Source: Alphaproteobacteria bacterium (GTDB lineage: Bacteria > Pseudomonadota > Alphaproteobacteria > JBFXJJ01). From it: DNA of 64,000 nt. A program made the translations under genes and the position numbers. Below are positions 21,321-38,385 of this stretch, piece by piece. Under the pieces are notes generated by a model that was not told the DNA's origin, did not search any database, and saw nothing but the letters and a program-made list of their open reading frames with translations. Location of the stretch: contig JBFXJJ010000013.1 of NCBI GenBank assembly GCA_050175015.1, positions 1 to 64,000 of the forward strand, written 5' to 3'. The stretch's first letter is position 1. Each line of letters starts with the position of its first letter.

Positions 21321-21471
21321 AATTCTATGCTATACAACCTCATAATAAAAATCGCAAGTAAGAATATTTGTTGACAATAAGAAAAGTTTTTTGTTTCCTG
21401 CTTGTTGTCTTGTTTTATTTAGTTTAAAAATAGTCAAATAAAAAGTTTATAACTAAAAATTTAAGGAAAGA

Positions 21472-23262
21472 ATGATGCATTGCTATCGAAGTCATAATTG
21501 TGATGAGTTAAGAGCCAAAGATTCTGGCAAACAAGTAAAATTATCAGGTTGGGTTCACAGTAAGCGTGACCATGGAAATTTGCTTTTCATCGATTTAAGA
21601 GATCACTATGGTATAACTCAATGTGTTATTGATATTTCTTCTAATGTTTTTAAAACTTTGGAACATATCCGCTTAGAAAGTGTGATTTGTGTTACAGGTA
21701 AGGTTGTAATTCGTGTTGGTGACAATATCAATCCTAAGATTACAACAGGGGAAATTGAGATTCAGGTTGATGAAGTTGAGGTGTTATCTGAAGCTGCTAT
21801 GCTTCCAATCCAGGTTTCTGGTGAACACGACTTCCCAGAAGATTTGAGACTCCGCTATCGTTTTCTAGACTTGAGAAGAGAAAAAGTTCACAAAAATATG
21901 ATTCTTCGTTCTCAAGTAATTTCTTCTATCAGAAAGAGAATGATAGATCAGGGCTTTATGGAATATCAAACTCCTATTCTCACCGCATCTTCACCAGAAG
22001 GCGCTCGAGATTTCTTGGTTCCAAGCCGTTTGCATCCTGGAAAATTTTATGCTTTGCCGCAAGCTCCACAGCAATTTAAACAGCTTTTGATGGTTTCTGG
22101 TTTTGACAGATATTTCCAAATTGCTCCTTGTTTCCGTGATGAGGACAGCCGTGCGGACAGGTCTCCAGGTGAATTCTATCAGCTTGATTTCGAAATGGCT
22201 TTTGTTACTCAAGACGATGTTTTTGAAGCTATTGAACCTGTTTTAGCTGGTATCTTTGAGGAATTTTCTAAAGATAAAAAAATAACCAAACCACCGTTTG
22301 TTAGAATCCCTTATAGAGAATCAATGCTTAAATATGGAAGTGACAAACCTGATTTGAGAAATCCTTTGGTTATTTCTGATGTTTCAGAAATCTTTAGAGG
22401 TTCAGGTTTTGGTTTCTTTGCAAATGCTGTTGAAAAAGGACATATTGTCAGAGCTATTCCAGCGCCCGATGCTTCAACCAGACCAAGAAGCTGGTTTGAT
22501 AAATTAAATGATTGGGCTAAAGAAACTGGCAATGGCGGTTTAGCTTATATTAATTTTGCTGTTGATGGGGCAAAAGGTCCTATTGCTAAAAACCTTGATG
22601 AAGACCGTATCAACCAAATTAAAACTTTAACAGGTGTTAAAGATGGCGATGCTCTTTTCTTTATATGTGGAGAGAAGAAAAAGGCTGAAAGTTTTGCTGG
22701 CACAGTTAGGACGAGGCTTTGCCAAGACCTTGATTTGCTCGAGAAAGATGCTTTCAAATTCTGTTGGATTGTTGATTTCCCAATGTTTGAGCAGAATGAA
22801 GAAACTGGAGCTATTGAGTTCAGCCATAACCCATTCTCAATGCCACAAGGCGGACTAGACGCTCTTTTGAACAAGGATCCTTTGGATATTTTGGCATATC
22901 AGTATGATATTGTTTGTAACGGCATTGAGCTTTCTTCTGGTGCGATTAGAAACCATTTACCAGAAATTATGTACAAAGCTTTTGAAATTGCTGGCTATGG
23001 CAAAGAAGTTGTTGAAAACAAATTTGGCGGTATGTTGAATGCCTTTAAGTATGGAGCTCCTCCACACGGTGGCTCTGCTCCAGGTATTGACCGTATCGTG
23101 ATGCTGTTAGCCGATGAACCTAACATTAGAGAAGTTATTTTATTCCCAATGAATCAGAAAGCTGAAGATTTGCTTATGCAGGCACCTTCAGAAGCTACGG
23201 AAAAGCAATTAAGAGAACTTCACATTAAGATTAATGTGCCTCCTAAAGCTTCAACAAAATAA
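21472..23262 (+). CDS. aspS: Aspartate-tRNA ligase
   Basis: [42 protein letters not shown]. Confidence 0.97.
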
Positions 23263-23285
23263 CTTTTTTTGTTAAATAATGTTTT

Positions 23286-23320
23286 AAAAAGCAGTCTGAT
23301 AATATTCAGGCTGCTTTTTT
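23286..23320 (+). terminator. Intrinsic terminator after aspS
   Basis: AAAAAGCAGTCTGA..TCAGGCTGCTTTTTT. Confidence 0.75.
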
Positions 23321-23528
23321 ATATGTTCTAAGCACAAGATAATGCTTTACAGATTAAGAATTTTTTCAAAAAATTCTTAACAATCCTTAAAATTATTTTT
23401 AAAAAAGTTTTACTTTTGCTTTTGCCGTAAAACAAAGTTATGAACGTTAATTTTCATATAAACAAATGAAAGATGCTTTAAAATCTTTGCCAGTAAAAAA
23501 AGTTTTCTTAATTTAGGCTTTCTAGTTT

Positions 23529-24782
23529 TTAACCGATTTTGGATTTTGTTATTAAGAAAGCGTTGTCAATTGCTTGCAAAGTTCTATTAAGTTCAGCTTG
23601 AGAATGTCTGTAGCAGATATACCCGTGATGATAAGGTTGCAAAAAGATTCCTTGTCTAATGAGCTGGGTATAAAATTCGTTACGGCGTTTTTTATAGATG
23701 CCATCTTCAGTCTTATCAAAGGTGATATAAAACATTAAACCTGTACCGCTGAGCCTTGCTCCTAAATTATGTTTATCTATAACGGTTTGTATCTTTTGAT
23801 AAAAATCTTTGCCCGTGTTCCACATTTTATCAAGAACACAATCACGGCGCAAAATTTCAACTGTTTTTAATGCCGCAACATAGCTATCACTGTTAGGGAA
23901 AAAGGTTGAAGATATAAAAACGTCTTTTTCTCCTTTCATCATAATTTCACGCTTACCGCATAGAGCTCCTATGGCATATCCATTTGCCATAGCCTTACCA
24001 AATGTGGATAAATCAGGGGTTACACCATAATATTTCTGGGCTCCGCCAAGAGACATTCTAAAACCTGTTCGGATTTCATCAAAAATCAAAACAACCCCAT
24101 ATTCATCGGCAAGTTTTCTAACGCCTTCTAAAAAGCCATCTTTAGGGTCTTGCATAGGAAGAGCTGTCGGGTGTCCGTAAGGTGTAACGATAATGGCTGC
24201 GGTATCATCTTTATGGGTTTTAAGAAGATTTTCTAGTTCATCTAGCTTGTTATAATGAAACTCAAACACATCTTCATAAAGCTTTTCTGGTACGCCGCCT
24301 TTAACTTCAACACACCAGTCGTGCCAGCCGTGATAGCCGCACCTGAGAATTTTTGTTTTTCCGGTATACCCTCTAGCCATTCTAACAGCGCAGGTTGTCG
24401 CATCAGAACCCGTTTTAACAAATATGGTCATTTCGGCGCAAGGGATAAGCTCTTTTAGAATAGAGGCTAATTCGTTTTGATATTCTTGAGTAAGAGAAAA
24501 ACAAAATCCTTTATCTCTTATTTGTTTAATTACCGCTTCATCAACTTCTTCTTCACGGTATCCTAAAATAATTGGACCATAAGCACACAGAAAATCAATA
24601 TATTCATTACCATCAATATCTATAACTCTGCCACCTTTACCACTTTCAAAATAAATAGGATATTCGCCTTCAACAAAGTTATAAGGCCGTCTAATTCCTA
24701 AAACCGCTCCTGGAATAATTTTTTTAGCATTTTCGTAAGTCGTCAGAGATTTATTAAGATTTAATTTTGGAAATTCGAGCAT
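23529..24782 (-). CDS. kat: Class III aminotransferase, probable 3-aminobutyryl-CoA aminotransferase
   Basis: PLP fold (LIFDEIRTGFR, STFGKAMANG). N-terminus GIRRPYNFVEGEYPI and GYHGWHDWCVEVKGG match my recollection of Cloacimonas Kat rather than HemL; 3 kb from a lysine cluster lacking kal. Confidence 0.75.
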   Translation of the reverse strand: MLEFPKLNLNKSLTTYENAKKIIPGAVLGIRRPYNFVEGEYPIYFESGKGGRVIDIDGNEYIDFLCAYGPIILGYREEEVDEAVIKQIRDKGFCFSLTQEYQNELASILKELIPCAEMTIFVKTGSDATTCAVRMARGYTGKTKILRCGYHGWHDWCVEVKGGVPEKLYEDVFEFHYNKLDELENLLKTHKDDTAAIIVTPYGHPTALPMQDPKDGFLEGVRKLADEYGVVLIFDEIRTGFRMSLGGAQKYYGVTPDLSTFGKAMANGYAIGALCGKREIMMKGEKDVFISSTFFPNSDSYVAALKTVEILRRDCVLDKMWNTGKDFYQKIQTVIDKHNLGARLSGTGLMFYITFDKTEDGIYKKRRNEFYTQLIRQGIFLQPYHHGYICYRHSQAELNRTLQAIDNAFLITKSKIG

Positions 24783-24850
24783 TTTAAACTCCTAATTAAT
24801 AAGAGATTTAGTTAAGAAAATTTAAGTAACGATTAGATGCCAGTCTAAGA

Positions 24851-26746
24851 CTACTCAGAAGGTTGAGCCTGATTTTTATCAGTTTCCATTGTCGAAGTCT
24901 TGCCATTTGTTTGTTCTGTTGCCGCTGTTCCAGAGTTGTTTGCGCCTGTTGTGTTATAAACATCGGAACCAGCTGATGAATCATTGTTAATAAAGGTTGC
25001 ATCATCAGGATTAACAACCGGCGTTGTTACAAAGCCTGAATCGGGTTCATTGGTTTCATCATCAACTAAAGGCTCACTTCCAGTGATTTTAGGTTCAGGA
25101 ACAGGCATAAATAAAACTTTTCCAGGAGGCAGAACTTCTTTTGGTTTTACCTTTTGCGGCATTAATTGTCTTGGTGCTTTTTCGTGAGGAATACAATTGA
25201 AGTTTTGATCACAAACGTTAGGATTCAAGCACAACATAGAACTATATCCAATAGAATGGCACGGTTTGCACGCATTATTGCGCCAGTAAGGCAAGTATTC
25301 TGGGCAAGAAGCACAAATTGCACCGCCTCTAGTATCACATTCCGAGCATTCGAAGTTGCCGTTGCATTGGTAGCCCTCACGCAGGCAGTGATCGCTTACG
25401 CCCATAGGAGAGTGGCAAGGACGGCAAGCCCCATTACGCCAGTAAGGCATATTTTCAGGGCAAGAAGGACAGGTTGCGGTATCATTGCGATCGCATTCTG
25501 AACACTCATAATTTGAGTTACAGTTGCGTCCTGCTGACTTACAGAAATCACTTGTTCCTCTTGCGGAGTGGCAAGGTCTACAGAAACCGTTGCGCCAATA
25601 AGGAGCATCTTTCGGACATAATGGACAGGTCTTGGTACCAGTTATATCGCAGTTAACGCAATCATAATTCTTGTTGCAGGCATTGCCTTCTTTATGGCAG
25701 AAATCGCTTGTGCCACCTGTGTTTTCATAGCAAGGCTTGCATTCGCCGTTACGCCAGTAAGGAGCATCTTTCGGACATAATGGGCAAGTATTGGTTCCAA
25801 TGGTTTCACATTCAACGCATTCATAGTCTGTGCCGCAATAATGACCATCAGCCTTGCAGAATTGACTGAGACCTTTTTTAGCATTACAAGGTCTGCAGAA
25901 GCCATCACGCCAGTAAGGGGCTTCTTCTGGACACAGGGCACAGGTTGCTGTTCCCGTTTCATCGCATTCTTTAGGCTGTGTAACATAGTTAAGGTTGCGA
26001 TCAGCTTTGAACATCTTATTGCGTGATAAACCATCTTTAACAAAGCGCATTAAAATATAACCAACTTTACCGCCATAAGCAGTTCCTGAAGCTCCTATAG
26101 AGTAGTGAGCTCCAATAAGACCATAATCTAAATCAATGAAATCAACACTGTAAACGGTTGTCATTACAGAGCTGCCAACTGTTGTTAAGCGGCATTCATG
26201 TCCTGTTGCATCTTCCATAATAATTTGATCTGGAGAATTAACAGATATTACAGTTTTTGAAGGTCTGCAGCTCGGAGTAATACCGTTAAAATAGTATTTG
26301 TAACCGATTATTAATTCAATTTTTTGTTCAGCGCGAAGAAGTCTAACATCTGATAAATCTGCTGAATCTACGAAGATGTTTCCTGGGGTTATTCCAGCTT
26401 TTACGGGATAAGAAATAAAATTATCATAACATTTATGGTGAATTTCATCAGCTTCGCAAAGCAAAACCGTGGAGTAAACATTAGTATCAAAGAAATACCA
26501 TAGAGTATTAAAGATAAATTCACGATTGTTTAGTTTGTTGGTTGCAACGCACTGATGTGAACGGCAAAGCATTATAGCGTCAGGGGTTCTGGAAAAAATG
26601 GGAGAAGGGGGTAAACTTGAGTGAACCTCATCAAGAAAAACCGCGGTATCATCGTAACCATAAGGAGCCTGATAACAGGAAGCCATTATCAAAGCTAGAA
26701 CTAAAACACATAATTTTTTTGAGTATTTCTTTAACCCAGAAGTCAT
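24851..26746 (-). CDS. Lipoprotein with five tandem Cys-rich PYWR repeats and low-complexity tail
   Basis: KKYSKK-hydrophobic-IMAS/C lipobox-like signal; unknown N domain; 5 repeats; Pro/Thr/Asn-rich tail. ATG at 26746 preferred to TTG at 26794. Confidence 0.75.
   Translation of the reverse strand: MTSGLKKYSKKLCVLVLALIMASCYQAPYGYDDTAVFLDEVHSSLPPSPIFSRTPDAIMLCRSHQCVATNKLNNREFIFNTLWYFFDTNVYSTVLLCEADEIHHKCYDNFISYPVKAGITPGNIFVDSADLSDVRLLRAEQKIELIIGYKYYFNGITPSCRPSKTVISVNSPDQIIMEDATGHECRLTTVGSSVMTTVYSVDFIDLDYGLIGAHYSIGASGTAYGGKVGYILMRFVKDGLSRNKMFKADRNLNYVTQPKECDETGTATCALCPEEAPYWRDGFCRPCNAKKGLSQFCKADGHYCGTDYECVECETIGTNTCPLCPKDAPYWRNGECKPCYENTGGTSDFCHKEGNACNKNYDCVNCDITGTKTCPLCPKDAPYWRNGFCRPCHSARGTSDFCKSAGRNCNSNYECSECDRNDTATCPSCPENMPYWRNGACRPCHSPMGVSDHCLREGYQCNGNFECSECDTRGGAICASCPEYLPYWRNNACKPCHSIGYSSMLCLNPNVCDQNFNCIPHEKAPRQLMPQKVKPKEVLPPGKVLFMPVPEPKITGSEPLVDDETNEPDSGFVTTPVVNPDDATFINNDSSAGSDVYNTTGANNSGTAATEQTNGKTSTMETDKNQAQPSE
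25187..25966 (-). repeat. 5 x ~52-aa coding repeat with 8 Cys each
   Basis: C-x7-C-x2-CP-x3-PYWR-x3-C(R/K)PC-..-C-..-C-..-C read directly from the translation. Confidence 0.92.
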
Positions 26747-26901
26747 AAAAATATATTTCCACAAACTTAAAGTTTTATTATCTTTTAAGCACAATAATTT
26801 GTTATTATAATTTTTTCAATCTACTAAATTTTTCAATCTACAATAAATGCTATTTCAATAAAATTCTATATATTTTTTTAATTTATACGGAGGCTTTCAA
26901 A

Positions 26902-27807
26902 GTGATTACGGTTTTTGGTTCTATAAATGCTGACTTTATTTTGGCTCTTAAAGATTTTCCTGCCCCTAAAGAGACGGTTTTGTGCCCGTCATATGAGATA
27001 AAAATTGGGGGAAAAGGTGCTAATCAAGCGGCAGCAGCTTCTCTTTCTGGTGGAAGTGTTGAAATGTTTGGAACTGTTGGCCGTGACGATTTTGGTAGTT
27101 TTGCAAAAGGAAAAATGGCTCATAAAGGTGTTGATATTTCTAACATTAAGGAAGGTGATGCGCCAACAGCGGTTGCGATAGTTATGGTTGATAGCAAGGG
27201 TGAAAACTCAATCGTAGTGGCATCTGGAGCTAATCTTTTATCAAAAGCCGAAGATGTTCCAGATGAAGCTTTGAGCAATGACAAGGTTTTGGTTTTGCAA
27301 ATGGAAGTTTCTAAAGAGGAAAATTTTAAACTTTTAAAAAGAGCCAAAAAGTTAGGCGCCAAAACCATTTTGAATGTTGCTCCCGCTGCGGAACTTCCTA
27401 ATGATATTCTGCCTTTCGTTGACTACTTGATAGTTAATGAGGTTGAAGCTTTGATGGTCGCTAAAAGCCTTAAAATCAAAGGAAGTGATATTGCTGTGAT
27501 TTTAAAGAAAATATCAGAGGTTTCTAAAGGCGTATGTATAGCGACTCTTGGTGGCGATGGTGTTTTAGCGGTTTCTGATAAGGAAGAAATAAAAGTTGAA
27601 GCCATAAAAATAAAACCTGTTGATACAACGGGGGCTGGCGATGCTTTTGTCGGCATTTTTGCTGCGGCGGTTGATGAGGGGCTTAATTTAAAAGATGCCT
27701 TAAAAAGAGCCTCGGTTGGAGCCTCGCTTGCTTGTCTTGGTCTAGGCGCCCAAGAAGCTCTTCCCACAAGAAACGATATTTTAGTAAAAATAGCTGAAGA
27801 GGCTTAA
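26902..27807 (+). CDS. rbsK: Ribokinase (PfkB family)
   Basis: GSINAD, GGKGANQA, GENSIVVASGAN, LQME, NEVE, DTTGAGDAF. Confidence 0.88.
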   Translation: MITVFGSINADFILALKDFPAPKETVLCPSYEIKIGGKGANQAAAASLSGGSVEMFGTVGRDDFGSFAKGKMAHKGVDISNIKEGDAPTAVAIVMVDSKGENSIVVASGANLLSKAEDVPDEALSNDKVLVLQMEVSKEENFKLLKRAKKLGAKTILNVAPAAELPNDILPFVDYLIVNEVEALMVAKSLKIKGSDIAVILKKISEVSKGVCIATLGGDGVLAVSDKEEIKVEAIKIKPVDTTGAGDAFVGIFAAAVDEGLNLKDALKRASVGASLACLGLGAQEALPTRNDILVKIAEEA

Positions 27808-27881
27808 AAAATCTTTCTTGAATCCTGCTTTTGAAGAGAATAGCATCAAACATTAAATTTAATTATCTAAAGAGGAAATAT

Positions 27882-28940
27882 ATGAACAATATTACAGAGA
27901 AAAAAAACGGCTGTCCGTTCGGTTCACACCGTGTTTTAGAGCCTAAAGGTCTTTTGCCGCAGGCAGCAGTGAAGCTTAATAATGATATGTCAACGATTTA
28001 CTCTAATGAGATATTGATTGATGTTGAAACTCTTAATATTGATTCTGCAAGTTTTCATCAAATATCCGAATCGGTTGGCGGTGATGATGCTCTTATTATG
28101 AAAAGAGTTAAAGAAATAGTTGCAACCAAAGGAAAACATCAAAATCCTGTAACAGGATCAGGCGGTGTTTTAATTGGAAAAGTTGCTAAAATCGGCTCTG
28201 ATTTAGAAGGCAAAGTTAAAGTAAAAGTTGGCGATACTATTGTTACGCTGGTTTCTTTGTCATTAACACCCCTTAGAATTGATGAAACTTTATGCGTTCG
28301 TAAAGATATGGATCAAGTAGATGTTAAAGGGCAGGCAATTTTATTTGAAAAAACCGTTTATGCCAAACTTCCAGAAGATCTGCCAAGAGGCATTGCTCTT
28401 TCAGTTTTAGATGTTGCTGGGGCTCCAGCTCAAGTCGAAAGATTAGTAAAAAAAGGCGATAAAGTATTAATTCTAGGAGCTGGCGGCAAGTCTGGAATGC
28501 TCTGTTCCTATGTAGCCAAAAAGATGTCAGGCAAAGAAGGTTTGGTAATAGGAAATACCCATTCCCCATCTTCGACAGAAAGATTAAAAAAACTTGGCAT
28601 CTGCGATTACGTTTTTGCCGCAGACTGTACTAAACCCCTTGATATTTATCAGAAAATCTATGAATTAACTGATGGTAAAATGGTTGATGTTGCTATTAAC
28701 TGCGTTAACATTGAAGGAAGCGAAATGGCAACTATTCTTCCTGTGCGTCAACGTGGTGTTGTTTATTTCTTTAGTATGGCAACAAGTTTTACCAGAGCGG
28801 CGCTAGGTGCTGAGGGTTACGGTTTTGATGTCGATATGATTATAGGGAACGGATTTGCCGAAAATCACGGTAATATTTCCTTAGATGTTTTAAGGGAATC
28901 TAAGGAATTAAGAGATGTTTTTGAGAAACTCTTTGTGTGA
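27882..28940 (+). CDS. kdd: L-erythro-3,5-diaminohexanoate dehydrogenase
   Basis: GCPFGSHRVLEPKG.LPQAA, LNIDSASF, GKHQNPVTGSGG, TLVSLSLTPL, FFSMATSF; ATG at 27882 after AGAGGA. Confidence 0.93.
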   Translation: MNNITEKKNGCPFGSHRVLEPKGLLPQAAVKLNNDMSTIYSNEILIDVETLNIDSASFHQISESVGGDDALIMKRVKEIVATKGKHQNPVTGSGGVLIGKVAKIGSDLEGKVKVKVGDTIVTLVSLSLTPLRIDETLCVRKDMDQVDVKGQAILFEKTVYAKLPEDLPRGIALSVLDVAGAPAQVERLVKKGDKVLILGAGGKSGMLCSYVAKKMSGKEGLVIGNTHSPSSTERLKKLGICDYVFAADCTKPLDIYQKIYELTDGKMVDVAINCVNIEGSEMATILPVRQRGVVYFFSMATSFTRAALGAEGYGFDVDMIIGNGFAENHGNISLDVLRESKELRDVFEKLFV

Positions 28941-28957
28941 TTTTTGAGGCAGTTAAT

Positions 28958-29782
28958 ATGAATAAGACGATTATTACTTGTGCGGTATGCGGAGCCGAAA
29001 CCACCAGAGAGCAAAACCCAAATCTTCCAATTACGCCAGATGAAATAGCCGCAGCAGCTTTGGAAGCTAGAAAGGCTGGAGCCGCTATTTTACATTTGCA
29101 CGTAAGAAAAAACGATGGTTCGCCAACGCAGGATATTGAAGTTTTTAAAGAAGCTATCAAAAAAATTAGGGATTTAACCGATTTAGTAATAGAAGTAACC
29201 ACGGGCGGGGCTGTTGGTATGAGCCTTGAAGAAAGGCTTATGCCGTTAAAGTTAAAACCTGAAATGGCATCGCTCGATTGTGGAACGGTCAATTTTGGCG
29301 ATGACTACATCATCAATACAATGCCGATGATGCGTGATGCGGCCAAAGAAATGAATAAATATGAGGTTCGTCCAACGATTGAATGTTTTGATATTTCTCA
29401 TATTGATGCATCTAAGATATTGATAAGAGAAGGATTAATTGAAGCTCCACTGCATTATGGCTTAGTTTTTAATGTGCCATCTGCTGTTCGGTATGATGCT
29501 GAGACTTTATCTTTTTTTGTTAAAAGGCTTCCCGAAGGAGCAAATTGGACGGCCGTAGGAGTAGGGGGAAAAGCTGCTCTTGAGGCTTCGGTTGGAGCCT
29601 TGGCTATGGGGGGAAATATTAGAGTAGGCTTTGAAGACAATGTCTATATGACCAAGGGTGTTCTTGCTCAAAGTAATGCAGAACTGGTTGAGCGGGCGGC
29701 AAAAATGATAACCGCTTGCGGCAATCTCGTGGCAACGCCAGATGATGTAAGAACAATGTTTAAAATTAAAAATAATATTTAA
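28958..29782 (+). CDS. kce: 3-keto-5-aminohexanoate cleavage enzyme (DUF849/BKACE)
   Basis: IITCAVCGAE..NPNLPITPDE, HLHVR, TTGGAVGM, RVGFEDN; follows kdd. ORF track start 28937. Confidence 0.92.
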   Translation: MNKTIITCAVCGAETTREQNPNLPITPDEIAAAALEARKAGAAILHLHVRKNDGSPTQDIEVFKEAIKKIRDLTDLVIEVTTGGAVGMSLEERLMPLKLKPEMASLDCGTVNFGDDYIINTMPMMRDAAKEMNKYEVRPTIECFDISHIDASKILIREGLIEAPLHYGLVFNVPSAVRYDAETLSFFVKRLPEGANWTAVGVGGKAALEASVGALAMGGNIRVGFEDNVYMTKGVLAQSNAELVERAAKMITACGNLVATPDDVRTMFKIKNNI

Positions 29783-29795
29783 AGTAGGTAGTAGT

Positions 29796-31064
29796 ATGAA
29801 AACTTATGCTGCTGTTGATTATAAAAGAGTTCCGCTTTTTAAAGATGTTTCTGAAAAAGATTGGTACGATTGGAAATGGCAAATCAAAAATGTCGTGCGT
29901 GATGTTGCAACATTAAAAAAGATTATTGAGGTAACAGATAAGGAAGAAGAAGACTTAAATAAGTGTTTATCTCGTTTTCAAATGTCAATCACGCCTTATT
30001 ATGCGTCATTAATGGATAAAGCTTATCGTTTATGTTCTGTAAGGCTTCAGGCTGTTCCTGATGCCAGAGAACTTAATGACAGCTCAAGTGATTTGGACGA
30101 TCCTTTGTCTGAAGATGAAGATTCTCCAGTGCCAGGTTTAACGCATCGTTATCCTGACAGAGTGTTGTTTCTTGTTACCGATATATGCTCAATGAATTGC
30201 CGCCACTGCACAAGACGCAGATTGGTTGGTCAAAAGGATAAACATCTTAATACATCAGATTTAGAAAAGGGTTTTGAATATATCCGTAATCATAAAGAAG
30301 TTAGAGATGTTTTGATTAGCGGCGGCGATCCTTTCACGCTTGATGATGACCGTTTAGAGTATATTATTAAAAGCATCAGAGCGATTGAACACGTTGAGAT
30401 TATTCGTATTGGGACGAGAACACCTGTTGTGATGCCGATGCGTATTACGGATAACCTTGTTAATATGCTTAAAAAATATCACCCTATTTATGTAAACACT
30501 CATTTTAACCATTATTCGGAAGTTACTCTTGAATCCAAGGAGGCTTGTGAAAAATTGGCTAATGCGGGAATTTCTATCGGCAATCAAAGTGTGCTTTTGC
30601 GTGATGTTAATGACTGCCCACGCATTATGAAAAAACTGGTACACGAGCTTTTGATGATAAGAGTTCGCCCTTATTATATTTATCAATGTGATTTATCACG
30701 AGGGATAGGACACTTTAGAACTTCAATAGCTAAAGGTCTTCAGATTATTGAAAGCCTGCGTGGTCATACCAGCGGACTTGCGGTTCCAACTTTTGTGGTC
30801 GATGCTCCGGGAGGCGGCGGCAAAATTCCTGTAATGCCTCAATATACGCTTTCTCGTTCAGATAAGCATATGATTTTGCGCAATTACGAAGGGGTAATTA
30901 CAACCTATACCGAGCCAGAAAATATCTATTCTAATTGCTGGTGCGAGCTTTGCAAAAATAATGAATATGGTCCAGAAGATGGCGTTGCTAAGTTGCTTAT
31001 GGGCGAAAAATTAGTTTTAGAACCTTCTGATATGAAGAGAAAACAAAGGCATAGGCATGAATAA
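29796..31064 (+). CDS. kamA: Lysine 2,3-aminomutase (radical SAM/PLP)
   Basis: THRYPDR, CSMNCRHCTRRR, SGGDP, DAPGGGGKIP (PLP Lys), C-terminal Cys cluster. Confidence 0.96.
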   Translation: MKTYAAVDYKRVPLFKDVSEKDWYDWKWQIKNVVRDVATLKKIIEVTDKEEEDLNKCLSRFQMSITPYYASLMDKAYRLCSVRLQAVPDARELNDSSSDLDDPLSEDEDSPVPGLTHRYPDRVLFLVTDICSMNCRHCTRRRLVGQKDKHLNTSDLEKGFEYIRNHKEVRDVLISGGDPFTLDDDRLEYIIKSIRAIEHVEIIRIGTRTPVVMPMRITDNLVNMLKKYHPIYVNTHFNHYSEVTLESKEACEKLANAGISIGNQSVLLRDVNDCPRIMKKLVHELLMIRVRPYYIYQCDLSRGIGHFRTSIAKGLQIIESLRGHTSGLAVPTFVVDAPGGGGKIPVMPQYTLSRSDKHMILRNYEGVITTYTEPENIYSNCWCELCKNNEYGPEDGVAKLLMGEKLVLEPSDMKRKQRHRHE

Positions 31065-31947
31065 AGAAGTGGCAGATATTACCAAAATAATATTTGTTAC
31101 GGGAGAACAGAAAAACGCAGGCAAGACAACTTTTTTAAAACATTTATTATTTGAGGCGAGGACAAAGGGCAAAAATTTTGTGGTTTCATCTGTCGGGATT
31201 GATGGTGAAAAAACCGATGCCGTTTATGGTAACAGCAAGCCGCAAATAGTTTTAGAAAAAGGCGAAATGGTCGTAACTTCAGAAGAGGCAATAAAACTTT
31301 CTGAAGGCGATTTTGATATTTTGAATGTTTTTGAAAATAATAAATATCAGCAAAATGAAAGATCCGTTTTAGCAAAAGCCAAGAGATTGAGTGCCATTGA
31401 AGTTGTGGCCTCTGGTGATAATTTGGTTTTGTCTGATGTTCTTTCTGCGATAAAAAAAGATATTGCGCCCGATTTTATTTTTGTTGATGGGGCAGCAGAT
31501 AGAATTACTCAAGTGGCGTCATCTCAAAATACAGCGTTTTACTATGTCGTTAAAATAAGTAATGCTAATTTTTATAGTGCTGTTGATAATATCAAAAAAC
31601 TAGATGCATTGTCTCGCCTGCCGTTATTTAGAGAGCAAAAAGACGGCAAAAAAAGGGTTAAGATAGAAGGGGCGCTGACCAGCAATAAAATAAATAAGCT
31701 AAAAGATGAAATCGAAGAAATTGTAATAAATGATTTTTCTAAAGTTTTTTTAAGTTTTGCCGAACTTAAAATCCTTTTAAAAAAGCGGACGGTATCAGTT
31801 AATAACCAATATGATTTAAAGTCTTTTATTATTATTGACAGTGAGATTTCTAAAGACAAAATAATAAAAGAGTTTCAAAACAAAAACTTATTATCAAAAA
31901 TAAAGTTTAATCCGTATGAAAATCAAATTTTGGAAGAATATATTTAA
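31057..31947 (+). CDS. kamB: KamB-like P-loop accessory protein
   Basis: GEQKNAGKTT, SVGIDGEKTD, VDGAADR; position between kamA and the MutS-like gene. Confidence 0.75.
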   Translation: MNKEVADITKIIFVTGEQKNAGKTTFLKHLLFEARTKGKNFVVSSVGIDGEKTDAVYGNSKPQIVLEKGEMVVTSEEAIKLSEGDFDILNVFENNKYQQNERSVLAKAKRLSAIEVVASGDNLVLSDVLSAIKKDIAPDFIFVDGAADRITQVASSQNTAFYYVVKISNANFYSAVDNIKKLDALSRLPLFREQKDGKKRVKIEGALTSNKINKLKDEIEEIVINDFSKVFLSFAELKILLKKRTVSVNNQYDLKSFIIIDSEISKDKIIKEFQNKNLLSKIKFNPYENQILEEYI

Positions 31948-33494
31948 TGGAAAAAATAAAAAAAGTTACCAAATTTGATGTTTTGCTGCAAAAGTTTAGT
32001 CCTCTGACACCGCAGGGAAAGAGTGCTAAAAACAATTTAACACTTATAAATGATAAAGAGCTTTTGCGGCATATCTATGATGAAACTGAGGCGGCAGTAA
32101 AGTTTTCTAATGAAAATGAAGCGGCGGTTGATAAAATAAAGTGGCATTTAAAACGTATTCCTAAAATTCCATCATTTGATAGTAAGGTGTTTTCTGCGGT
32201 TGATATTTTTCTGTTTAAAAAATTTTTGATTAATACTAAAGCTGTTTGCCGAAGTTATAACTTTGGTTTTAACTTAAGCGATTTACTAGAGTTTCTAGAC
32301 CGAGATAATATGGGCGAAGAAACGTTTTATCTAAGTAGTAAATATGACAACAAACTAAAAAGTATTCGTGATGAAATTTCTAATGTTGATGTGCTTATAA
32401 ATGAAAGCAAAAAAAGGACTTTAGAGCTGGCAAAAGAAAAATATGGGCTTGATTTTGATGGACACGATTTTTTATTAATGCCGTCAGAGTTTGCGTCTAA
32501 AGTAAATCAAAATGAACTTAATATCGAATCTTATGATGGTCATAAAATAATTTTAAAACCCGTTTTTTCTAAGGATTATTTTGAACTTTTAGGAAAACGT
32601 TCCGCAAAAATAAAACAAGAAAGAGAGATAGAAAATAAGGTCTTAAAAACAATTACGTCTCACATAAAGCAAGAAGAAAAAAAGATTTTACAATTAGAAA
32701 AAGACGTAACGTCTCTTGATTTAGCCTTGGCTAGGGCTTTTTTAGTTAAAGAACTAAAATTAACGAGACCCGAAATTGGAGAAATCCGAAGTTACCAGAT
32801 AAAAGGCGGCAGATTGCTTAGCGTAGAAGATTACTGTGCCGAGCAAAAACTTAAATACTGGGCTTTAGATTTAGAGACCGATAAGCAGAATATTATGCTC
32901 TATGGCTCTAATATGTGTGGCAAGACGGTTGTTTTGCATACTATAGCTTTTCTTCAACTAACGGCTCAGTTTGGGTTTTTTGTTCCAGCTAAAGTTTTTA
33001 AGGCGCCGTTATTTGATAAAATAGCGCTGGTTACTGATTATGATGATGGGCAGGAGGGCTTAAGCGCCTTTGGAAGAGAAATAGTTGCTCTTAATGAGGC
33101 TGTTTCTGATAAAAATCTTAGAACCTTAATTCTTTTTGATGAATTTGCTAGAACAACAAACAGTACAGATGCCGTTTCGCTGCTTAATGGTCTTTTAGAA
33201 TATCTTATTCATAATGCTAATTTTAATGCCTTGTTATCAACCCATTATGATTCTATTGCCCGTCATAGTGAAGTCGATTTTTTCCGTATGAAGGGAATAA
33301 AGTGGCAGGATTTGGAAAGGGCAGAAATAGATGATAAGGAAAACAGGATTAATCTTATTCAAAAGTATATTGAATACGTTCCTGAAAAAGATAAATCCAG
33401 TGGTTTTTCTGGCGAAGCTTTGAAAATTGCTGAAATTTTAGGTGCCGATATGTCTTTAATTAACTATGCTAAAAAAGGATTAGGTAATGGCTAA
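31947..33494 (+). CDS. kamC: KamC-like MutS-domain ATPase (aminomutase accessory/reactivase)
   Basis: GSNMCGKT, GLSAFGRE, LFDEFARTTN, STHY; no mismatch-binding domain; overlaps kamB and kamD. Confidence 0.8.
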   Translation: MEKIKKVTKFDVLLQKFSPLTPQGKSAKNNLTLINDKELLRHIYDETEAAVKFSNENEAAVDKIKWHLKRIPKIPSFDSKVFSAVDIFLFKKFLINTKAVCRSYNFGFNLSDLLEFLDRDNMGEETFYLSSKYDNKLKSIRDEISNVDVLINESKKRTLELAKEKYGLDFDGHDFLLMPSEFASKVNQNELNIESYDGHKIILKPVFSKDYFELLGKRSAKIKQEREIENKVLKTITSHIKQEEKKILQLEKDVTSLDLALARAFLVKELKLTRPEIGEIRSYQIKGGRLLSVEDYCAEQKLKYWALDLETDKQNIMLYGSNMCGKTVVLHTIAFLQLTAQFGFFVPAKVFKAPLFDKIALVTDYDDGQEGLSAFGREIVALNEAVSDKNLRTLILFDEFARTTNSTDAVSLLNGLLEYLIHNANFNALLSTHYDSIARHSEVDFFRMKGIKWQDLERAEIDDKENRINLIQKYIEYVPEKDKSSGFSGEALKIAEILGADMSLINYAKKGLGNG

Positions 33495-35037
33495 TATCAA
33501 CTTACCTCAGGATAAAATAGAATATGCTCGCAAATTAGCGCAGACTATCACAAATCCTGTGCAAGAATATATTAAAAAGCATACCACAACGACGGTCGAA
33601 AGAGCTACTTTGCGCTTACTTGGGGCAGATGGTGCTGATGAAAATGGCATTCCTGTACCTAATTTGGTTGTCGATGCTCAAAGCAGCAATTTAGAATATG
33701 GAGCTGCTAGATATTATTTATCGGCGTTAACAAAATTTGATAACAATCCTGAAAAGTTAAACGATGCTCTTGCTAAAGGATATGACATTAAGTCTGTGCC
33801 TTTATTGGATATGGCAAAGATAAAGGTGGTTGCAGAAGATAGAGTTATGGCATTTAGCCGTCAAGTTAGTCAAAATGCAGCGTATCGTCAGGAAAAAATT
33901 GAGCTTACTAAAGCTAACCAGCCCGAACCTCTTTTATATGTTATTGTTGCTACAGGAAATATTTATGAAGATGTCAAGCAGGCACAAGCTGCGGCTGAAC
34001 AAGGTGCTGATATCATAGCGGTTATTAGAACAACCGCCCAAAGTCTTTTAGACTATGTTCCGTATGGGGCAACAACCGAAGGTTTTGGAGGAACTTATGC
34101 GACGCAAGAAAACTTTAAGATTATGAGAGCGGCGTTAGATGATGTTTCGGCAAAACAAAATCGCTATATCCGTTTGGTTAATTACTGCTCAGGATTATGT
34201 ATGCCTGAGATTGCGGCAATGGGAGCTTTAGAGCGTCTTGATATGATGCTTAACGATTCAATGTATGGTATTTTGTTTCGTGATATTAATATGTATCGGA
34301 CGTTTGTGGATCAAAACTTTTCTCGTATGATAAATTCTTTTGCTGGAATAGTTATTAACACAGGCGAAGATAACTACTTAACAACTTCTGATGCTGTGGA
34401 ATCTGCGCATACGGTTTTAGCTTCACAGCTTTTAAATGAAAGATTTGCGCTTAATGCGGGGCTTAAAGAAGAGTTTATGGGACTTGGACACGCTTTTGAG
34501 ATGGATCCCTCACTTAAAGACGGCTTTTTATTTGAGCTGGCTCAAGCTCAAATGGCAAGAGAAATATTTCCTAAGAGTCCTCTAAAATATATGCCGCCAA
34601 CGAAACATATGACGGGCGATATTTTTAAAGGGTATATTATGAATGCGATGTTTAATTTTGTGGCACAGGCAACAGGGCAGTCAATTTTGCTTTTAGGTAT
34701 GCTTACCGAGGCCATTCATACTCCGTTTATGCAAGACAGGTTTTTGGCAATTAAAAATGCCAAATATGTTATGAATAATATGAAATCTTTCGGAGATGAT
34801 ATTGTTTTTAAAGACGACGGAATCATTAAAAAAAGAGCCTTTGAGGTCTTTTATAAAGCAATCGATTTTATGGAAGAAATAGAAAAAATCGGTCTTTTTG
34901 AAGCGATAGCCAAAGGACTTTTTGCCGATGTTAAACGCCCTCGTGATGGCGGCAAAGGATTTAATGGGGTTGTTCCTAAAGCGCCTGATTATTATAACCC
35001 TGTAATGGACTTTTTAGAAAACAAGTTGGAGGTTTGA
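33487..35037 (+). CDS. kamD: Lysine 5,6-aminomutase alpha subunit
   Basis: HTTTTVERA, YVIVATGNIYED, GFGGTYATQENF, NYCSGLCMPE, KYMPPTK. Confidence 0.96.
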   Translation: MANINLPQDKIEYARKLAQTITNPVQEYIKKHTTTTVERATLRLLGADGADENGIPVPNLVVDAQSSNLEYGAARYYLSALTKFDNNPEKLNDALAKGYDIKSVPLLDMAKIKVVAEDRVMAFSRQVSQNAAYRQEKIELTKANQPEPLLYVIVATGNIYEDVKQAQAAAEQGADIIAVIRTTAQSLLDYVPYGATTEGFGGTYATQENFKIMRAALDDVSAKQNRYIRLVNYCSGLCMPEIAAMGALERLDMMLNDSMYGILFRDINMYRTFVDQNFSRMINSFAGIVINTGEDNYLTTSDAVESAHTVLASQLLNERFALNAGLKEEFMGLGHAFEMDPSLKDGFLFELAQAQMAREIFPKSPLKYMPPTKHMTGDIFKGYIMNAMFNFVAQATGQSILLLGMLTEAIHTPFMQDRFLAIKNAKYVMNNMKSFGDDIVFKDDGIIKKRAFEVFYKAIDFMEEIEKIGLFEAIAKGLFADVKRPRDGGKGFNGVVPKAPDYYNPVMDFLENKLEV

Positions 35038-35038
35038 A

Positions 35039-35767
35039 ATGATAATAAAACCTTATGGCGACACTTTAAACGATGGTTCAATTCAGCTTTCTTTCACGCT
35101 GCCTGTTGCTAATAATGCTCAAGGGCAGGAAGCCGCAAAACAGCTTGTTTTAAAACTGGGCTTTGATAGTTGTGAAGTCGTTGATTCTCAGAATCTTTCA
35201 GATGATTTTACGATGTTTGTGGCTTATGGCAAAACTTCAAAAAGCATCGATTTGGATACGATAAAGGTTGAAGTTGCAACCGAAGAATATTTGAGTTTTG
35301 ATGAAATTAATGCGTTCATTAAGGCAAAAATAGGGCGCAAAGTTGTTATCGTCGGCGGCTGTACAGGCTCAGATGCCCATACCGTAGGAATTGACGCTAT
35401 TATGAATATGAAGGGCTACAATCATCATTATGGACTTGAGCGTTATACTATGATTGAAGCCTATAATTTAGGAGCGCAGGTTCCTAATGAAACGATGATA
35501 GAGTTTGCTAAAAACAAAAACGCAGATGCGATAATCATCTCTCAAGTTGTTACTCAGAAAGATGTTCATATCAAAAATTTGACGGAAATGGTCGAGCTTT
35601 TGGAGGCAGAAAATTTAAGAGATAGGTTTATTCTTGTTGCAGGAGGTCCTAGAATAAGTCATAAGTTAGCATTGGAGTTAGGTTATGATGCAGGTTTTGG
35701 AAGAGGAACCTATGCCGAGCACGTTGCGACGCACATTATAAAAACGATGGAAAATCGTAAAAAATAA
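35039..35767 (+). CDS. kamE: Lysine 5,6-aminomutase beta subunit (B12-binding)
   Basis: KPYGDTLNDG..QLSFTLP, DAHTVG base-off motif, NMKGY PLP Lys, GYDAGFG. Confidence 0.96.
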   Translation: MIIKPYGDTLNDGSIQLSFTLPVANNAQGQEAAKQLVLKLGFDSCEVVDSQNLSDDFTMFVAYGKTSKSIDLDTIKVEVATEEYLSFDEINAFIKAKIGRKVVIVGGCTGSDAHTVGIDAIMNMKGYNHHYGLERYTMIEAYNLGAQVPNETMIEFAKNKNADAIIISQVVTQKDVHIKNLTEMVELLEAENLRDRFILVAGGPRISHKLALELGYDAGFGRGTYAEHVATHIIKTMENRKK

Positions 35768-35790
35768 AGGAAGAGGTTAAATAAAGTAAA

Positions 35791-36801
35791 ATGAAAATAT
35801 TAGTAACTGGAACCGCAGGCTTTATAGGCAACCATGTCGCACTAAAACTTTTGCAACAAGGACACGAGGTAATTGGGCTTGATTGTCTTACCGACTATTA
35901 TGATGTCAATCTAAAAGAAGCAAGGCTGGAAAGATTAAAAGCTTTTGCTGGGTTTACAGAAGAAAGAGTTGATTTGGCAGATGCTAAAGAAATTACTCGT
36001 ATTTTTAAAACTAGAGAACCAGAAAAAATTGTGAACCTCGCCGCTCAGGCAGGCGTTCGCCATAGTTTAAAAAAGCCTCAAGATTATATTGATTCCAACA
36101 TAACGGGTTTTCTTAATATTTTGGAAGGCTGTCGTAATTTTGGAATTAAGCATTTAGTTTATGCCTCAAGCAGTTCGGTTTATGGTGCGGAAACCGCAAT
36201 GCCGTTTTCAACCCATCAAAAAGCGGTCCACCCCGTAAGTTTATATGCTGCAACTAAACGAGCTAATGAGTTAATGGCTCACTGCTATAGTCATCTTTTT
36301 AGGTTCCCGACAACAGGACTTCGTTTTTTTACCGTTTATGGTCCTTGGGGACGCCCTGATATGGCTCTTTTCTTATTTGCCGATGCCATACTTAAAGACA
36401 AGCCGATTGATGTTTTTAACTATGGTAAAATGAAGAGAGATTTTACATATATTGATGATATTGTTGATGGCATTATTCGTCTTTTAGATAGACCCGCCGA
36501 AGTTAATAATGATTGGGATAGTGATAATCCTGATAATGCAACAAGCGGCGTTGCTCCTTGGAGAGTATATAATATCGGTAACAGCAAGCCTGTCAGCTTG
36601 ATGACCTATATCGAAGTTTTAGAAAAAGAACTAGGAAAAACAGCTCAAAAAAATATGCTTCCTATTCAAGCGGGAGATGTTCCTGCAACTTGGGCAGACG
36701 TTGATGATTTGATTAGAGATGCGGAGTATAAACCTGATACTAGTGTTGAAGTCGGGGTTGCAAACTTTGTTAAATGGTACCGAGACTATTATAAAATTTA
36801 G
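35791..36801 (+). CDS. NAD-dependent epimerase (UDP-glucuronate 4-epimerase type)
   Basis: TGTAGFIG, LAAQAGVR, ASSSSVYG, YAATK, FFTVYGPWGRPDMA. Confidence 0.92.
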   Translation: MKILVTGTAGFIGNHVALKLLQQGHEVIGLDCLTDYYDVNLKEARLERLKAFAGFTEERVDLADAKEITRIFKTREPEKIVNLAAQAGVRHSLKKPQDYIDSNITGFLNILEGCRNFGIKHLVYASSSSVYGAETAMPFSTHQKAVHPVSLYAATKRANELMAHCYSHLFRFPTTGLRFFTVYGPWGRPDMALFLFADAILKDKPIDVFNYGKMKRDFTYIDDIVDGIIRLLDRPAEVNNDWDSDNPDNATSGVAPWRVYNIGNSKPVSLMTYIEVLEKELGKTAQKNMLPIQAGDVPATWADVDDLIRDAEYKPDTSVEVGVANFVKWYRDYYKI

Positions 36802-36831
36802 AGCTATGCCTATTTAGGTATAAACAAAATC

Positions 36832-36869
36832 AAAAACAGAGGTTTAAATTTTTAAACCTCTGTTTTTTT
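36832..36869. terminator. Bidirectional intrinsic terminator
   Basis: AAAAACAGAGGTTTAAA / TTTAAACCTCTGTTTTT between convergent genes. Confidence 0.8.
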
Positions 36870-36900
36870 GTAGCTAAAACATTTTGTTATGTTTTTCTAA

Positions 36901-38385
36901 TTAGTCTTTAACGTGGAACGTTCTAATAACATAAGAAAGTTTCTGGTTAATAGATTTGTTTGCTAATTTATTTTTCTTAATATTAGGAAGAGGTTTCCAA
37001 CTTTCAGAAAGAGCAGATAAAGCATCTTTCAACTGCCATTTATGCTCAAACGTGCTGCCTGATAATTGATAAAGTGTTGCAATATCATCTTCATTAAACC
37101 AAGAAAAATCAGTAAGTTTTAGTTTTTTCTCATCAATGTATATAGGATAAATTTCAGAGCGCTCAATAACTTTGGCAACTTGATCTCTATCCATAGTATT
37201 AAAAGAAATAAGTTTTTTTCTAAATTCAACAGCGTTATCAAATTTCTTATTAACAGCGTTCTTAAGTTGTGCTTTTTTTATGCCGTCAGTTTCCAATTTA
37301 GCTAGAACTGGGGCATTAATGTTATAATAAACCTTGTTGTATACAGCTTGGTTAAAAACATTTTGCAGAAAGAATAAAGATACAAAGCAGATTGATGCTG
37401 AAATAACAGGGGTTGTTACCCAGCCGCTGCTGATACGCCCTAAAACACGCCAGCTAATACCTTTACCGCCCTTTAAAAGTCCGATACCAATAACAGCGCC
37501 AACAACCGCTTGTGAGCTTGAAACAGGAACGAGCGGAATAGTTGGAAGATTTCTAACTGCAAGCCAGTGTTCCAATCCTTCGGAAGCAAAAAGTAAAAGG
37601 ACAACCGATTGAGCTACCACAACAACCCAAGCGCCAATTGGAGATAGGGGCATAAGTCCGCCGCCAACTGTTACCATAACTCGTTTAGAATATGTGAATA
37701 CGCCCACAGCGATAGCAAGTGCACCAACGAAGAATAGCTGTTGCACGCCCGTTACTTGGAAGGTATCAAAAATCTTAAAGTTAGTAAAAGGAGAAACAGG
37801 GACAAAAACACCCATAACGTTTGATATGTTGTTAGCTCCAAGTGCATAAGAACCGAAGGCTCCGCCTAGAATTAGTCCTATTCTTGTTAAAGCATCAAGT
37901 CTGACTAAATGCAATTTAGAAATAGAAAGTATGATTTTTACTAGTTTGTATATTGGCATAGCGATTAAGGCTGCGAGTAAAGGACACGCAACCCAAGTAC
38001 CAAAAATCTTGATTAAAGCTGATAAATCAGTAATAGAACCAGAAAAAAGGTTCCAGCCGATAATTGCTCCAACAATGGCTTGGGTCGTAGATACAGGTAT
38101 GCCAAGAGTTGTCATCCAATAAACGGTTATTGCAGCAGCTAACGCTACCATAAAAGAACCAGCAATAGCATTTACAGAACCTAGTTGTCCTAAAGTGTGT
38201 GCTGCACCTGCGCCGCCTACGGTTGCTCCCCATATAACAAAAATGCTGCATACGATAGCTGCCGTTGAGAATTTGACCATTCTTGTTCCGACAGCTGTTC
38301 CGAAAACGTTTGACGCATCATTAGCGCCAAGAGACCAGCCCAAAAATAGACCACTGCTTAAAAATACTAAAATTGTAAGAGACAT
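36901..38385 (-). CDS. PiT-family inorganic phosphate transporter
   Basis: GANDASN, PVSTTQ, GANNISN, PVSSSQ; soluble C-terminal extension. Confidence 0.9.
   Translation of the reverse strand: MSLTILVFLSSGLFLGWSLGANDASNVFGTAVGTRMVKFSTAAIVCSIFVIWGATVGGAGAAHTLGQLGSVNAIAGSFMVALAAAITVYWMTTLGIPVSTTQAIVGAIIGWNLFSGSITDLSALIKIFGTWVACPLLAALIAMPIYKLVKIILSISKLHLVRLDALTRIGLILGGAFGSYALGANNISNVMGVFVPVSPFTNFKIFDTFQVTGVQQLFFVGALAIAVGVFTYSKRVMVTVGGGLMPLSPIGAWVVVVAQSVVLLLFASEGLEHWLAVRNLPTIPLVPVSSSQAVVGAVIGIGLLKGGKGISWRVLGRISSGWVTTPVISASICFVSLFFLQNVFNQAVYNKVYYNINAPVLAKLETDGIKKAQLKNAVNKKFDNAVEFRKKLISFNTMDRDQVAKVIERSEIYPIYIDEKKLKLTDFSWFNEDDIATLYQLSGSTFEHKWQLKDALSALSESWKPLPNIKKNKLANKSINQKLSYVIRTFHVKD

Follow-up and report, generated by a model that had tools for sequence, protein, structure and literature searches.

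We analyzed positions 1 to 64,000 of contig JBFXJJ010000013.1 (GenBank assembly GCA_050175015.1), a 64,000-nt stretch of alphaproteobacterial DNA that we refer to as the window. It carries a run of seven genes, kdd-kce-kamA-kamB-kamC-kamD-kamE, and an aminotransferase gene, kat, on the opposite strand. An earlier note made from the sequence alone had read these genes as the Kat-type, ammonia-lyase-free pathway of lysine fermentation, acquired by an anaerobic, motile alphaproteobacterium that would degrade lysine toward acetate rather than butyrate.

The kdd-kce-kam cluster and its aminotransferase

The seven cluster genes abut or overlap one another on a single strand (27831-35767, +; Table 1). 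We named them by the NCBIfam equivalog models for lysine fermentation, which have curated cut-offs, together with Pfam and solved-structure matches. Five of the seven proteins (Kdd, KamA, KamC, KamD, and KamE) exceed their cut-offs. Solved enzymes are matched by Kce (2y7d, 226 bits), KamA (2a5h, 569 bits), and KamD (1xrs, 695 bits), and a bifunctional Kal-Kce model is covered by Kce only over its Kce half (model positions 169-438). CSMNCRHC at residue 131 of KamA, DAHTVG at residue 112 of KamE, and the retained HLH and GFEDN of Kce, which we take to be cofactor motifs, are all intact. The match of the divergent KamB-like protein is restricted to the N-terminal 141 of 326 model positions, and 11 of 80 related loci have, in the corresponding place, a gene whose product is 30-36% identical to it. 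Judged by these matches, seven family-specific assignments in succession cannot be a chance pattern. Steps 1-4 of the Kat-variant pathway (KamA, KamDE, Kdd, and Kce) are thus all represented in the window, and the contiguous order given in the earlier note is confirmed by the equivalog models and the single strand. Pfam and NCBIfam scans also bear out its statement that the window has neither kal nor a CoA-transferase gene, and the same holds genome-wide.

Table 1. Features of the locus and the thiolase gene of the host genome. Positions are those of the window unless a contig of the host assembly (C3) is named.
Feature	Position	Strand	Evidence or remark
kat, predicted 3-aminobutyryl-CoA:2-oxoglutarate aminotransferase, class III PLP	23529-24782	-	PF00202 177 bits
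Divergent intergenic region, lipoprotein gene / rbsK-like-kdd predicted operon	26795-26901		13-nt direct repeat TTTTTCAATCTAC, two copies
PfkB-family ribokinase-like gene, first of the predicted transcription unit	26902-27807	+	TIGR02152 254 bits, cut-off 300
kdd, L-erythro-3,5-diaminohexanoate dehydrogenase	27831-28940	+	NF052381 254 bits, cut-off 200
kce	28937-29782	+	NF052387 371 bits, cut-off 382; PF05853 323 bits
kamA, lysine 2,3-aminomutase (radical SAM)	29796-31064	+	TIGR03820 603 bits, cut-off 525
kamB-like, divergent reactivase subunit	31057-31947	+	NF052386 110 bits, cut-off 210
kamC, MutS-like reactivase ATPase	31947-33494	+	NF052383 360 bits, cut-off 300; PF00488 match
kamD, lysine 5,6-aminomutase alpha subunit	33487-35037	+	NF052384 819 bits, cut-off 600
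kamE, lysine 5,6-aminomutase beta subunit (B12-binding)	35039-35767	+	NF052385 381 bits, cut-off 280
Extended-SDR, UDP-sugar-epimerase-like gene	35791-36801	+	PF01370 192 bits
Hairpin terminator, 16 pairs	36832-36867		ends the kam unit and the convergent PiT gene; sole strong terminator, after the SDR gene
Acetyl-CoA C-acetyltransferase (only thiolase)	C3:206723-207895		550 bits

The kat gene lies upstream of kdd, at a distance of 3,048 nt. The closest solved fold family of its product, a class III pyridoxal phosphate (PLP) enzyme, is that of glutamate-1-semialdehyde 2,1-aminomutase (GSAM, or HemL; 3bs8, 218 bits). Its best NCBIfam matches are GSAM models, which it hits at 242-290 bits against cut-offs of 398-637; with the HemL model TIGR00713 the score is 275 bits (cut-off 527.3), or 273.6 bits when the whole genome is searched. 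A HemL model search of the host genome found no true HemL. The protein carries the motifs LGIRRPYNF at residue 28, HGWHDWC at residue 151, and FGKAM at residue 261, the last of which holds the invariant K263. HGWHDWC is present in 87/87 rows of the Kat family and in none of four outgroup aminotransferase rows.

Relatives of this protein number in the thousands. The best 120 are 61-86% identical, three of them bearing the JGI name '3-aminobutanoyl-CoA transaminase', and the closest among those listed are two metagenomic proteins with 86% and 82% identity. Family members that adjoin kam genes in other phyla share 66-72% identity with the window protein. We scanned one genome per species, which gave at least 590 coding stretches, and took the best 80 as loci. 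These belong to Bacteroidota, Cloacimonadota, Planctomycetota, Verrucomicrobiota, Lentisphaerota, Spirochaetota, Chloroflexota, Bacillota, and Thermodesulfobacteriota. Counting genes no more than 10 kb from kat, we found kce in 27/80 loci, kdd in 25/80, and kamA and kamD in 19/80 each. Nearly all kam-linked loci among these 80 have a Kat identity of at least 66%, and Desulfobacterota loci with a Kat-like protein at 61-64% have no kam, kdd, or kce within 10 kb. Accounts of lysine fermentation usually deal with Firmicutes, Fusobacteria, Bacteroidota, and Cloacimonadota; the earlier note had regarded it as known mainly from these phyla, a view that the survey does not uphold, as kat/kam clusters are far more widespread.

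In a quick IQ-TREE phylogeny of 91 rows, four of them outgroup, with SH-aLRT support, the unlinked Desulfobacterota proteins form a single 43-row clade (100%) and the window protein falls outside it. The window protein and the 86% and 82% metagenomic proteins form a trio (100%), which adjoins a kam-linked Spirochaetales protein from locus L021 (SH-aLRT 92, unstarred). Nine Cloacimonadota rows are nested in a 35-row, mostly kam-linked clade (95%). The window protein is 66-69% identical to these nine, including that of locus L028 (69%), labeled Ca. Cloacimonas sp., in which a thiolase gene directly precedes kat. The same pairing, CLOAM0810/0809, is described by Perret et al. (2011; PMC3149608). 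According to that study, Kat was found as a gene misannotated 'hemL' that replaces kal in a digester Bacteroidetes, kat adjoins a thiolase gene in 'Candidatus Cloacamonas acidaminovorans', the two Kat proteins are more than 65% identical, and a 60% homolog in the non-lysine-fermenter NaphS2 was thought to have another function.

As a separate observation, the 43 loci of the unlinked clade (among L023-L083, mostly Thermodesulfobacteriota) encode Kat-like proteins that presumably act on another substrate.

These comparisons support the assignment of the aminotransferase to the Kat family and, as judged from sequence, its replacement of kal at this locus. Kat activity (EC 2.6.1.111) means transamination of 3-aminobutyryl-CoA with 2-oxoglutarate, free beta-amino acids not being substrates. 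The earlier note's Kat-like aminotransferase 3 kb upstream on the other strand stands: it is a class III enzyme, short of every HemL cut-off, that groups with kam-linked family members and not with the unlinked clade.

Downstream steps and the fate of acetoacetate

The host genome comprises 2.53 Mb in 49 contigs, with 35% GC, 99.42% completeness, and 0.56% contamination. Steps 7-10 of the Kat variant (glutamate dehydrogenase, thiolase, Pta, and Ack) are all present. The NAD-glutamate dehydrogenase (1,138 aa; Bac_GDH_CD 843 bits) is encoded on contig C1, and pta and ackA are adjacent on contig C11. Four genes have a [FeFe]-hydrogenase catalytic domain (Fe_hyd_lg_C) and none in the genome encodes a heme-copper oxidase (COX1), which fits the anaerobic life proposed in the earlier note.

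Two steps were not found anywhere in the genome: step 6 (AtoA/AtoD) and step 11 (butyryl-CoA dehydrogenase). Genome-wide searches returned 0 matches for Kal (NF052388), AtoDA/SCOT-type CoA-transferases (PF01144), Cat1-type CoA-transferases (PF02550), type III CoA-transferases (PF02515), and acyl-CoA dehydrogenases (PF00441). Acetoacetate decarboxylase (PF06314) was not found, and no 3-hydroxybutyrate dehydrogenase scored above the TIGR01963 cut-off (best 199 of 307 bits). The genome has four AMP-binding matches, three within large open frames of the nonribosomal peptide synthetase (NRPS) type and one DltA-like in a sugar cluster, and none is a candidate acetoacetyl-CoA synthetase (AACS). A tblastn check independent of hidden Markov models (HMMs), with eight CoA-transferase subunits and one AACS-like protein taken from other kat loci, gave only a 23% match to an NRPS domain; thiolase queries recovered the C3 gene at 51-57% identity. 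The genome search suggested in the earlier note thus found thiolase and hydrogenase and did not find kal, atoAD, or bcd. Apart from the pathway, positions 30-48 kb of contig C7 hold three large open frames of the NRPS/polyketide synthase type (2,367, 2,447, and 1,150 aa), in the 2.5-Mb genome of an anaerobe.

We compared the acetoacetate step with that of other kat loci. Around kat in 12 loci, we annotated 36 of 84 open reading frames (ORFs), omitting kat itself, kam genes already identified, and more distant ORFs. The kat gene is followed by a PF01144 CoA-transferase subunit pair in 6/12 loci and by an ACAS_N/AMP-binding gene in 1/12, and a thiolase gene adjoins kat in 6/12. Across 160 kat loci, 36 combine a Kat identity of at least 66% with at least 4 kb of flank, and 25 of these 36 are kam-linked. 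Because all 25 carry a CoA-transferase or AACS-like gene, the genome-wide lack of a recognizable acetoacetate-activating enzyme in our host is unusual. It is perhaps not unique: another 88 kat loci have a Kat identity of 55-66%, and 9 of the 17 kam-linked ones among them have no such gene in the flanks examined.

With no CoA-transferase, no route to acetate was identified for four of the six carbons of lysine, those of acetoacetate, a point that the earlier note does not raise. Its prediction of acetate rather than butyrate agrees with the presence of pta-ackA and the absence of acyl-CoA dehydrogenase.

Lysine fermentation requires a radical-SAM enzyme that is sensitive to oxygen, as well as a B12 enzyme. 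Two cobalamin riboswitches were detected in the genome, one before metE and the other (95 bits; C21:3227-4576, -) upstream of a 325-aa gene with a weak NADAR-domain match. The organism may depend on imported corrinoids. The genome also has a second KamA-family radical-SAM gene (C6:2323-3396, -), 46% identical to the cluster KamA, which may be EpmB or another aminomutase.

Taking the gene content as a whole, we consider it probable that the locus encodes Kat-type, ammonia-lyase-free lysine fermentation in a strictly fermentative alphaproteobacterium, with genes gained by horizontal transfer and acetoacetate not activated by any enzyme found. The activities and product balance that follow are those we infer from the gene identities. 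KamA would convert lysine to beta-lysine, and KamDE, kept active by KamBC, would convert beta-lysine to 3,5-diaminohexanoate. Kdd would oxidize this to 3-keto-5-aminohexanoate, releasing NH3 and NAD(P)H, and Kce would then consume acetyl-CoA to yield acetoacetate and 3-aminobutyryl-CoA. The upper pathway and Kat together would thus produce acetoacetyl-CoA plus free acetoacetate, with 2-oxoglutarate regenerated by the large NAD-glutamate dehydrogenase. The single thiolase would split acetoacetyl-CoA into two acetyl-CoA, one returning to Kce and the other yielding acetate and ATP through Pta-AckA. As crotonyl-CoA reduction is impossible, the two NAD(P)H per lysine would leave only as H2 via the [FeFe]-hydrogenases or through other sinks, and no butyrate would be formed. 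The predicted balance is lysine to acetate, acetoacetate, 2 NH3, and 4 [H], about 1 ATP being gained from each lysine. The acetoacetate might be excreted, decay to acetone, or be handled by an unrecognized enzyme.

As to how the pathway ends, we tentatively put forward two possibilities together: a shortened Kat route without acetoacetate activation, giving one acetate and one acetoacetate or acetone with H2 as the electron sink, or an activating enzyme of an unrecognized family. If true, this would be an undescribed end of lysine fermentation, and acetoacetate or acetone in anoxic waste habitats could derive from microbes of this kind.

Host, acquisition, and flanking genes

The aspS gene lies on the same contig, 267 nt from the kat stop codon. 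The best 120 relatives of its product, AspRS, are 72-77% identical, and 21/21 of those with an organism name are Alphaproteobacteria, including MAGs named Alphaproteobacteria, Rhodospirillales, and Rhodospirillaceae as well as 'Acetobacter sp. CAG:977', Novispirillum, Telmatospirillum, and Oleispirillum. The host is thus alphaproteobacterial, as the earlier note had it. Other genes of the window are typical of a bacterial chromosome (dxs, ispA, ndk, hda, rnd, pssA, psd, mgtE, and genes for methyl-accepting chemotaxis proteins [MCPs] and flagellins), and the two flagellin and two MCP genes fit a motile organism. The host genome is the sole member of its order in the genome collection searched; 40/40 relatives share only its class.

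We surveyed another 400 genomes, sampled evenly across the class, of which one has KamD and two have Kdd, three different genomes in all. A Kat orthologue (E ≤ 1e-90) occurs in none of the 400, and Kat, KamD, and Kdd are never combined. Among the matches listed, the nearest relative of KamD is one metagenomic protein at 80% identity, followed by a plateau at 65-70% that spans many phyla (Elusimicrobiota, Spirochaetota, Ignavibacteriales, Muiribacteriota, Planctomycetota, Bacteroidota, and Lentisphaerota), and none of these matches is named alphaproteobacterial. A scan of metagenome contigs for near kin gave no match above 71% identity. The tetranucleotide make-up and GC3 of the cluster are typical of the host genome.

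The genes are rare in the class and the closest relatives of Kat and KamD are not alphaproteobacterial, which points to horizontal acquisition from an anaerobe, either long enough ago for composition to equilibrate or from a donor of like composition. This agrees with the acquisition proposed in the earlier note. With a flat KamD plateau and no resolution deep in the Kat tree, no donor can be named.

The one genome of the 400 with KamD is that of another alphaproteobacterium, G039 (4.6 Mb; locus GC 65%; L106:16667-19095 and L107:7549-10629), which has a kamD-kamE pair whose products are 44% and 41% identical to those of the window. It is a lone pair, with no kdd, kce, kamA, or kat nearby. By these sequence comparisons, it is neither a lysine fermentation cluster nor the source of the window genes. 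We judged its position about 8.5 kb from rnd-aspS coincidental, given that it lies on the other side of that gene pair and the identity is 44%.

The cluster is flanked by two genes that are close to it on the same strand. The ribokinase-like gene ends 23 nt before kdd, and the extended short-chain dehydrogenase/reductase (SDR) gene begins 23 nt after kamE with no terminator in between, so that the SDR gene is probably co-transcribed with the kam unit. The nearest atlas clusters of the two are ribokinases and UDP-glucuronate 4-epimerases, respectively, each commonest in Pseudomonadota; we treat these as leads only. Neither gene stands beside kat or kam in any of the 80 loci. We had considered the kinase and the SDR as pathway enzymes (for example, an acetoacetate reductase) and rejected this because of their absence from the 80 loci and their ordinary nearest clusters. 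The ribokinase-like gene is probably a native flank rather than a pathway enzyme, and the SDR gene is likely a native flank as well. We read the kam block as having come to lie between these two native genes.

In addition to the two copies of the direct repeat, the divergent intergenic region contains a related third copy and promoter-like hexamers on both strands. From its sequence, the kam unit may have its operator in this repeat region, which has no adjacent regulator gene; in the kat loci L021 and L011, by contrast, a PAS/sigma-54 activator is encoded upstream.

Between kat and the ribokinase-like gene lies a 647-aa lipoprotein-like ORF (24851-26794, -) without a Pfam or NCBIfam family; kat follows it after 68 nt with no predicted terminator. 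The ORF has a lipoprotein-type signal (…LALIMASC), five Cys-rich repeats of about 60 aa (TCPLCPxxAPYWRNGxCxPC…), a low-complexity tail, and an N-terminal domain of about 210 aa with 36-45% homologs in 4/40 genomes of the class. We rejected it as a pathway component: it resembles a secreted lipoprotein, has no family, and recurs only by its N-terminal domain.

Elsewhere in the window, the flagellin genes (52098-54329 and 54880-57069, -) are unusually long, encoding 743 and 729 aa with large centers between conserved N- and C-terminal helices. An 876-aa protein (8920-11550, +) contains GLUG motifs and a region like the N terminus of M26 IgA1-protease.

Alternative readings and comparison with known systems

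We asked whether the cluster could be foreign to the alphaproteobacterium, with a chimeric contig or bin. The nearest relatives of Kat and KamD come from other phyla, and the Logan assembly of run X1, labeled as a landfill metagenome and possibly the source sample, has one break between aspS and kat, at 23385-23425, and another near 38360; both observations would suit a chimera. The Logan contigs are an independent assembly, not independent data. One of 14,988 bp covers 23396-38383 with zero differences, a second covers 19500-23414, and the two meet in a 41-nt unitig with a depth of 41.7. However, depth is alike on both sides of the break (16.2 and 15.6), and the AT-rich intergenic 31-nt core of the unitig recurs at C1:232441, making it an intragenomic repeat. 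This second copy of the 31-mer accounts for the graph break as well as for the raised unitig depth. The tetranucleotide distance of the 15-kb block is equaled or exceeded by 33% of 146 other sequence windows, and GC3 is uniform. Within the class, 4/40 genomes have homologs of the N-terminal part of the lipoprotein encoded inside the block, the flanking kinase and SDR genes point to Pseudomonadota (as leads), and contamination is low. Composition and the independent assembly thus argue against a visible chimera, and we regard this explanation as very improbable. Runs X2 and X3 contain next to none of the stretch. One X1 contig joins 24720 to 29142; with only 21 letters on the short side, we dismissed this joint as a repeat or another organism. 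Of the findings that the earlier note said would count against its reading, none was seen here at the level of sequence: the aminotransferase does not score as HemL, no kal was found elsewhere in the genome, and neither a non-alphaproteobacterial host nor a visibly chimeric contig emerged.

It is also improbable, though somewhat less so, that the aminotransferase acts as HemL or on another amine, with 3-aminobutyryl-CoA handled otherwise or the kam cluster serving another purpose. The placement of kat off the kam operon, the GSAMs as closest solved proteins, and the 43-row clade without kam linkage would all accommodate such a function. Against it, the protein scores below all HemL cut-offs, the genome has no other HemL candidate, and Alphaproteobacteria normally make 5-aminolevulinate by ALA synthase. 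Furthermore, the window protein lies outside the fully supported unlinked clade, there is no kal that could do the work of Kat, and kat is 3 kb from kdd. A third alternative concerns only the end of the pathway: the full published Kat route could operate with a CoA-transferase or synthetase that falls in an assembly gap or belongs to an unrecognized family, giving three acetate and about 2 ATP per lysine. The 49-contig assembly leaves room for this, and such a gene accompanies kat in 7/12 annotated loci as well as in every kam-linked locus at 66% identity or more with usable flanks. We nevertheless consider it unlikely, given the completeness of the genome, the empty searches (three CoA-transferase Pfam families, AMP-binding enzymes, and tblastn with nine real queries), and the twelve kam-linked loci of lower Kat identity that also lack the gene in the flanks examined.

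Several points weigh against our preferred reading of a Kat-type pathway without a recognized acetoacetate-activating enzyme. Two of the seven cluster proteins score below their curated cut-offs, Kce by 11 bits (371/382) and the KamB-like protein by more (110/210 bits). The kat gene stands outside the kam operon, behind the lipoprotein gene on the opposite strand. The branch that joins the window trio to its kam-linked neighbors has an SH-aLRT of 92, unstarred, in a quick tree, and identity to Kat was judged through Cloacimonadota homologs, with L028 as proxy, rather than CLOAM0809 itself. Given the Kat-like proteins at 61-64% without nearby kam genes in Desulfobacterota and the NaphS2 homolog, family membership alone does not fix the substrate. 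A two-gene atoDA might fall between two of the 49 contigs. Neither CobS nor a transporter that could supply KamDE with B12 was identified in the genome, although it has two cobalamin riboswitches. Finally, passing electrons from NADH to H2 requires low H2 pressure or confurcation.

Compared with the Kat variant of 'Candidatus Cloacamonas acidaminovorans' and a digester Bacteroidetes, as laid out in PMC3149608, the present gene set has the same kamA, kamDE, kdd, and kce, and the same HemL-like aminotransferase replacing kal, with 2-oxoglutarate recycled by glutamate dehydrogenase. The downstream thiolase, Pta, and Ack are shared, and kat is apart from the kam genes, as in Cloacamonas. In contrast to that route, AtoA/AtoD (step 6) and Bcd/Etf candidates (step 11) are lacking here, the glutamate dehydrogenase is the large NAD type of about 1,100 aa, the thiolase gene is on another contig rather than beside kat, and the host is alphaproteobacterial. 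Here kdd precedes kce, the reverse of the kce-kdd order in most other loci.

The classical type of Fusobacterium nucleatum and Clostridium sticklandii, as covered in PMC3149608 and PMC8473912, shares the upper pathway to 3-aminobutyryl-CoA and acetoacetate with the same five activities. In contrast to the classical type, our host lacks Kal, butyryl-CoA dehydrogenase, and acetoacetate:butyrate CoA-transferase, and butyrate is not a possible product. HemL offers the closest solved fold to Kat, but the equivalog scores are about half the cut-offs and HGWHDWC is absent from the four outgroup aminotransferases.

We found no report of the pathway in an alphaproteobacterium in the open-access library searched, which does not extend to subscription journals. 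There, 3-aminobutyryl-CoA aminotransferase appears as an annotation in a Flintibacter species description, and a microbiome survey naming both lysine fermentation and Alphaproteobacteria attributes the pathway to a Clostridiales MAG. The Kat-type gene set is well supported, in an unexpected host, and the locus offers a natural test case of what follows when the acetoacetate-activating step, present with kat at most other loci, is lacking. All of the upper pathway, together with Kat, is encoded in the chromosome of a low-GC, hydrogenase-bearing alphaproteobacterium without a heme-copper oxidase. These findings support a new host lineage of the pathway that Perret et al. described in 2011, which extends the host range of the Kat route and enlarges the picture of strictly fermentative Alphaproteobacteria.

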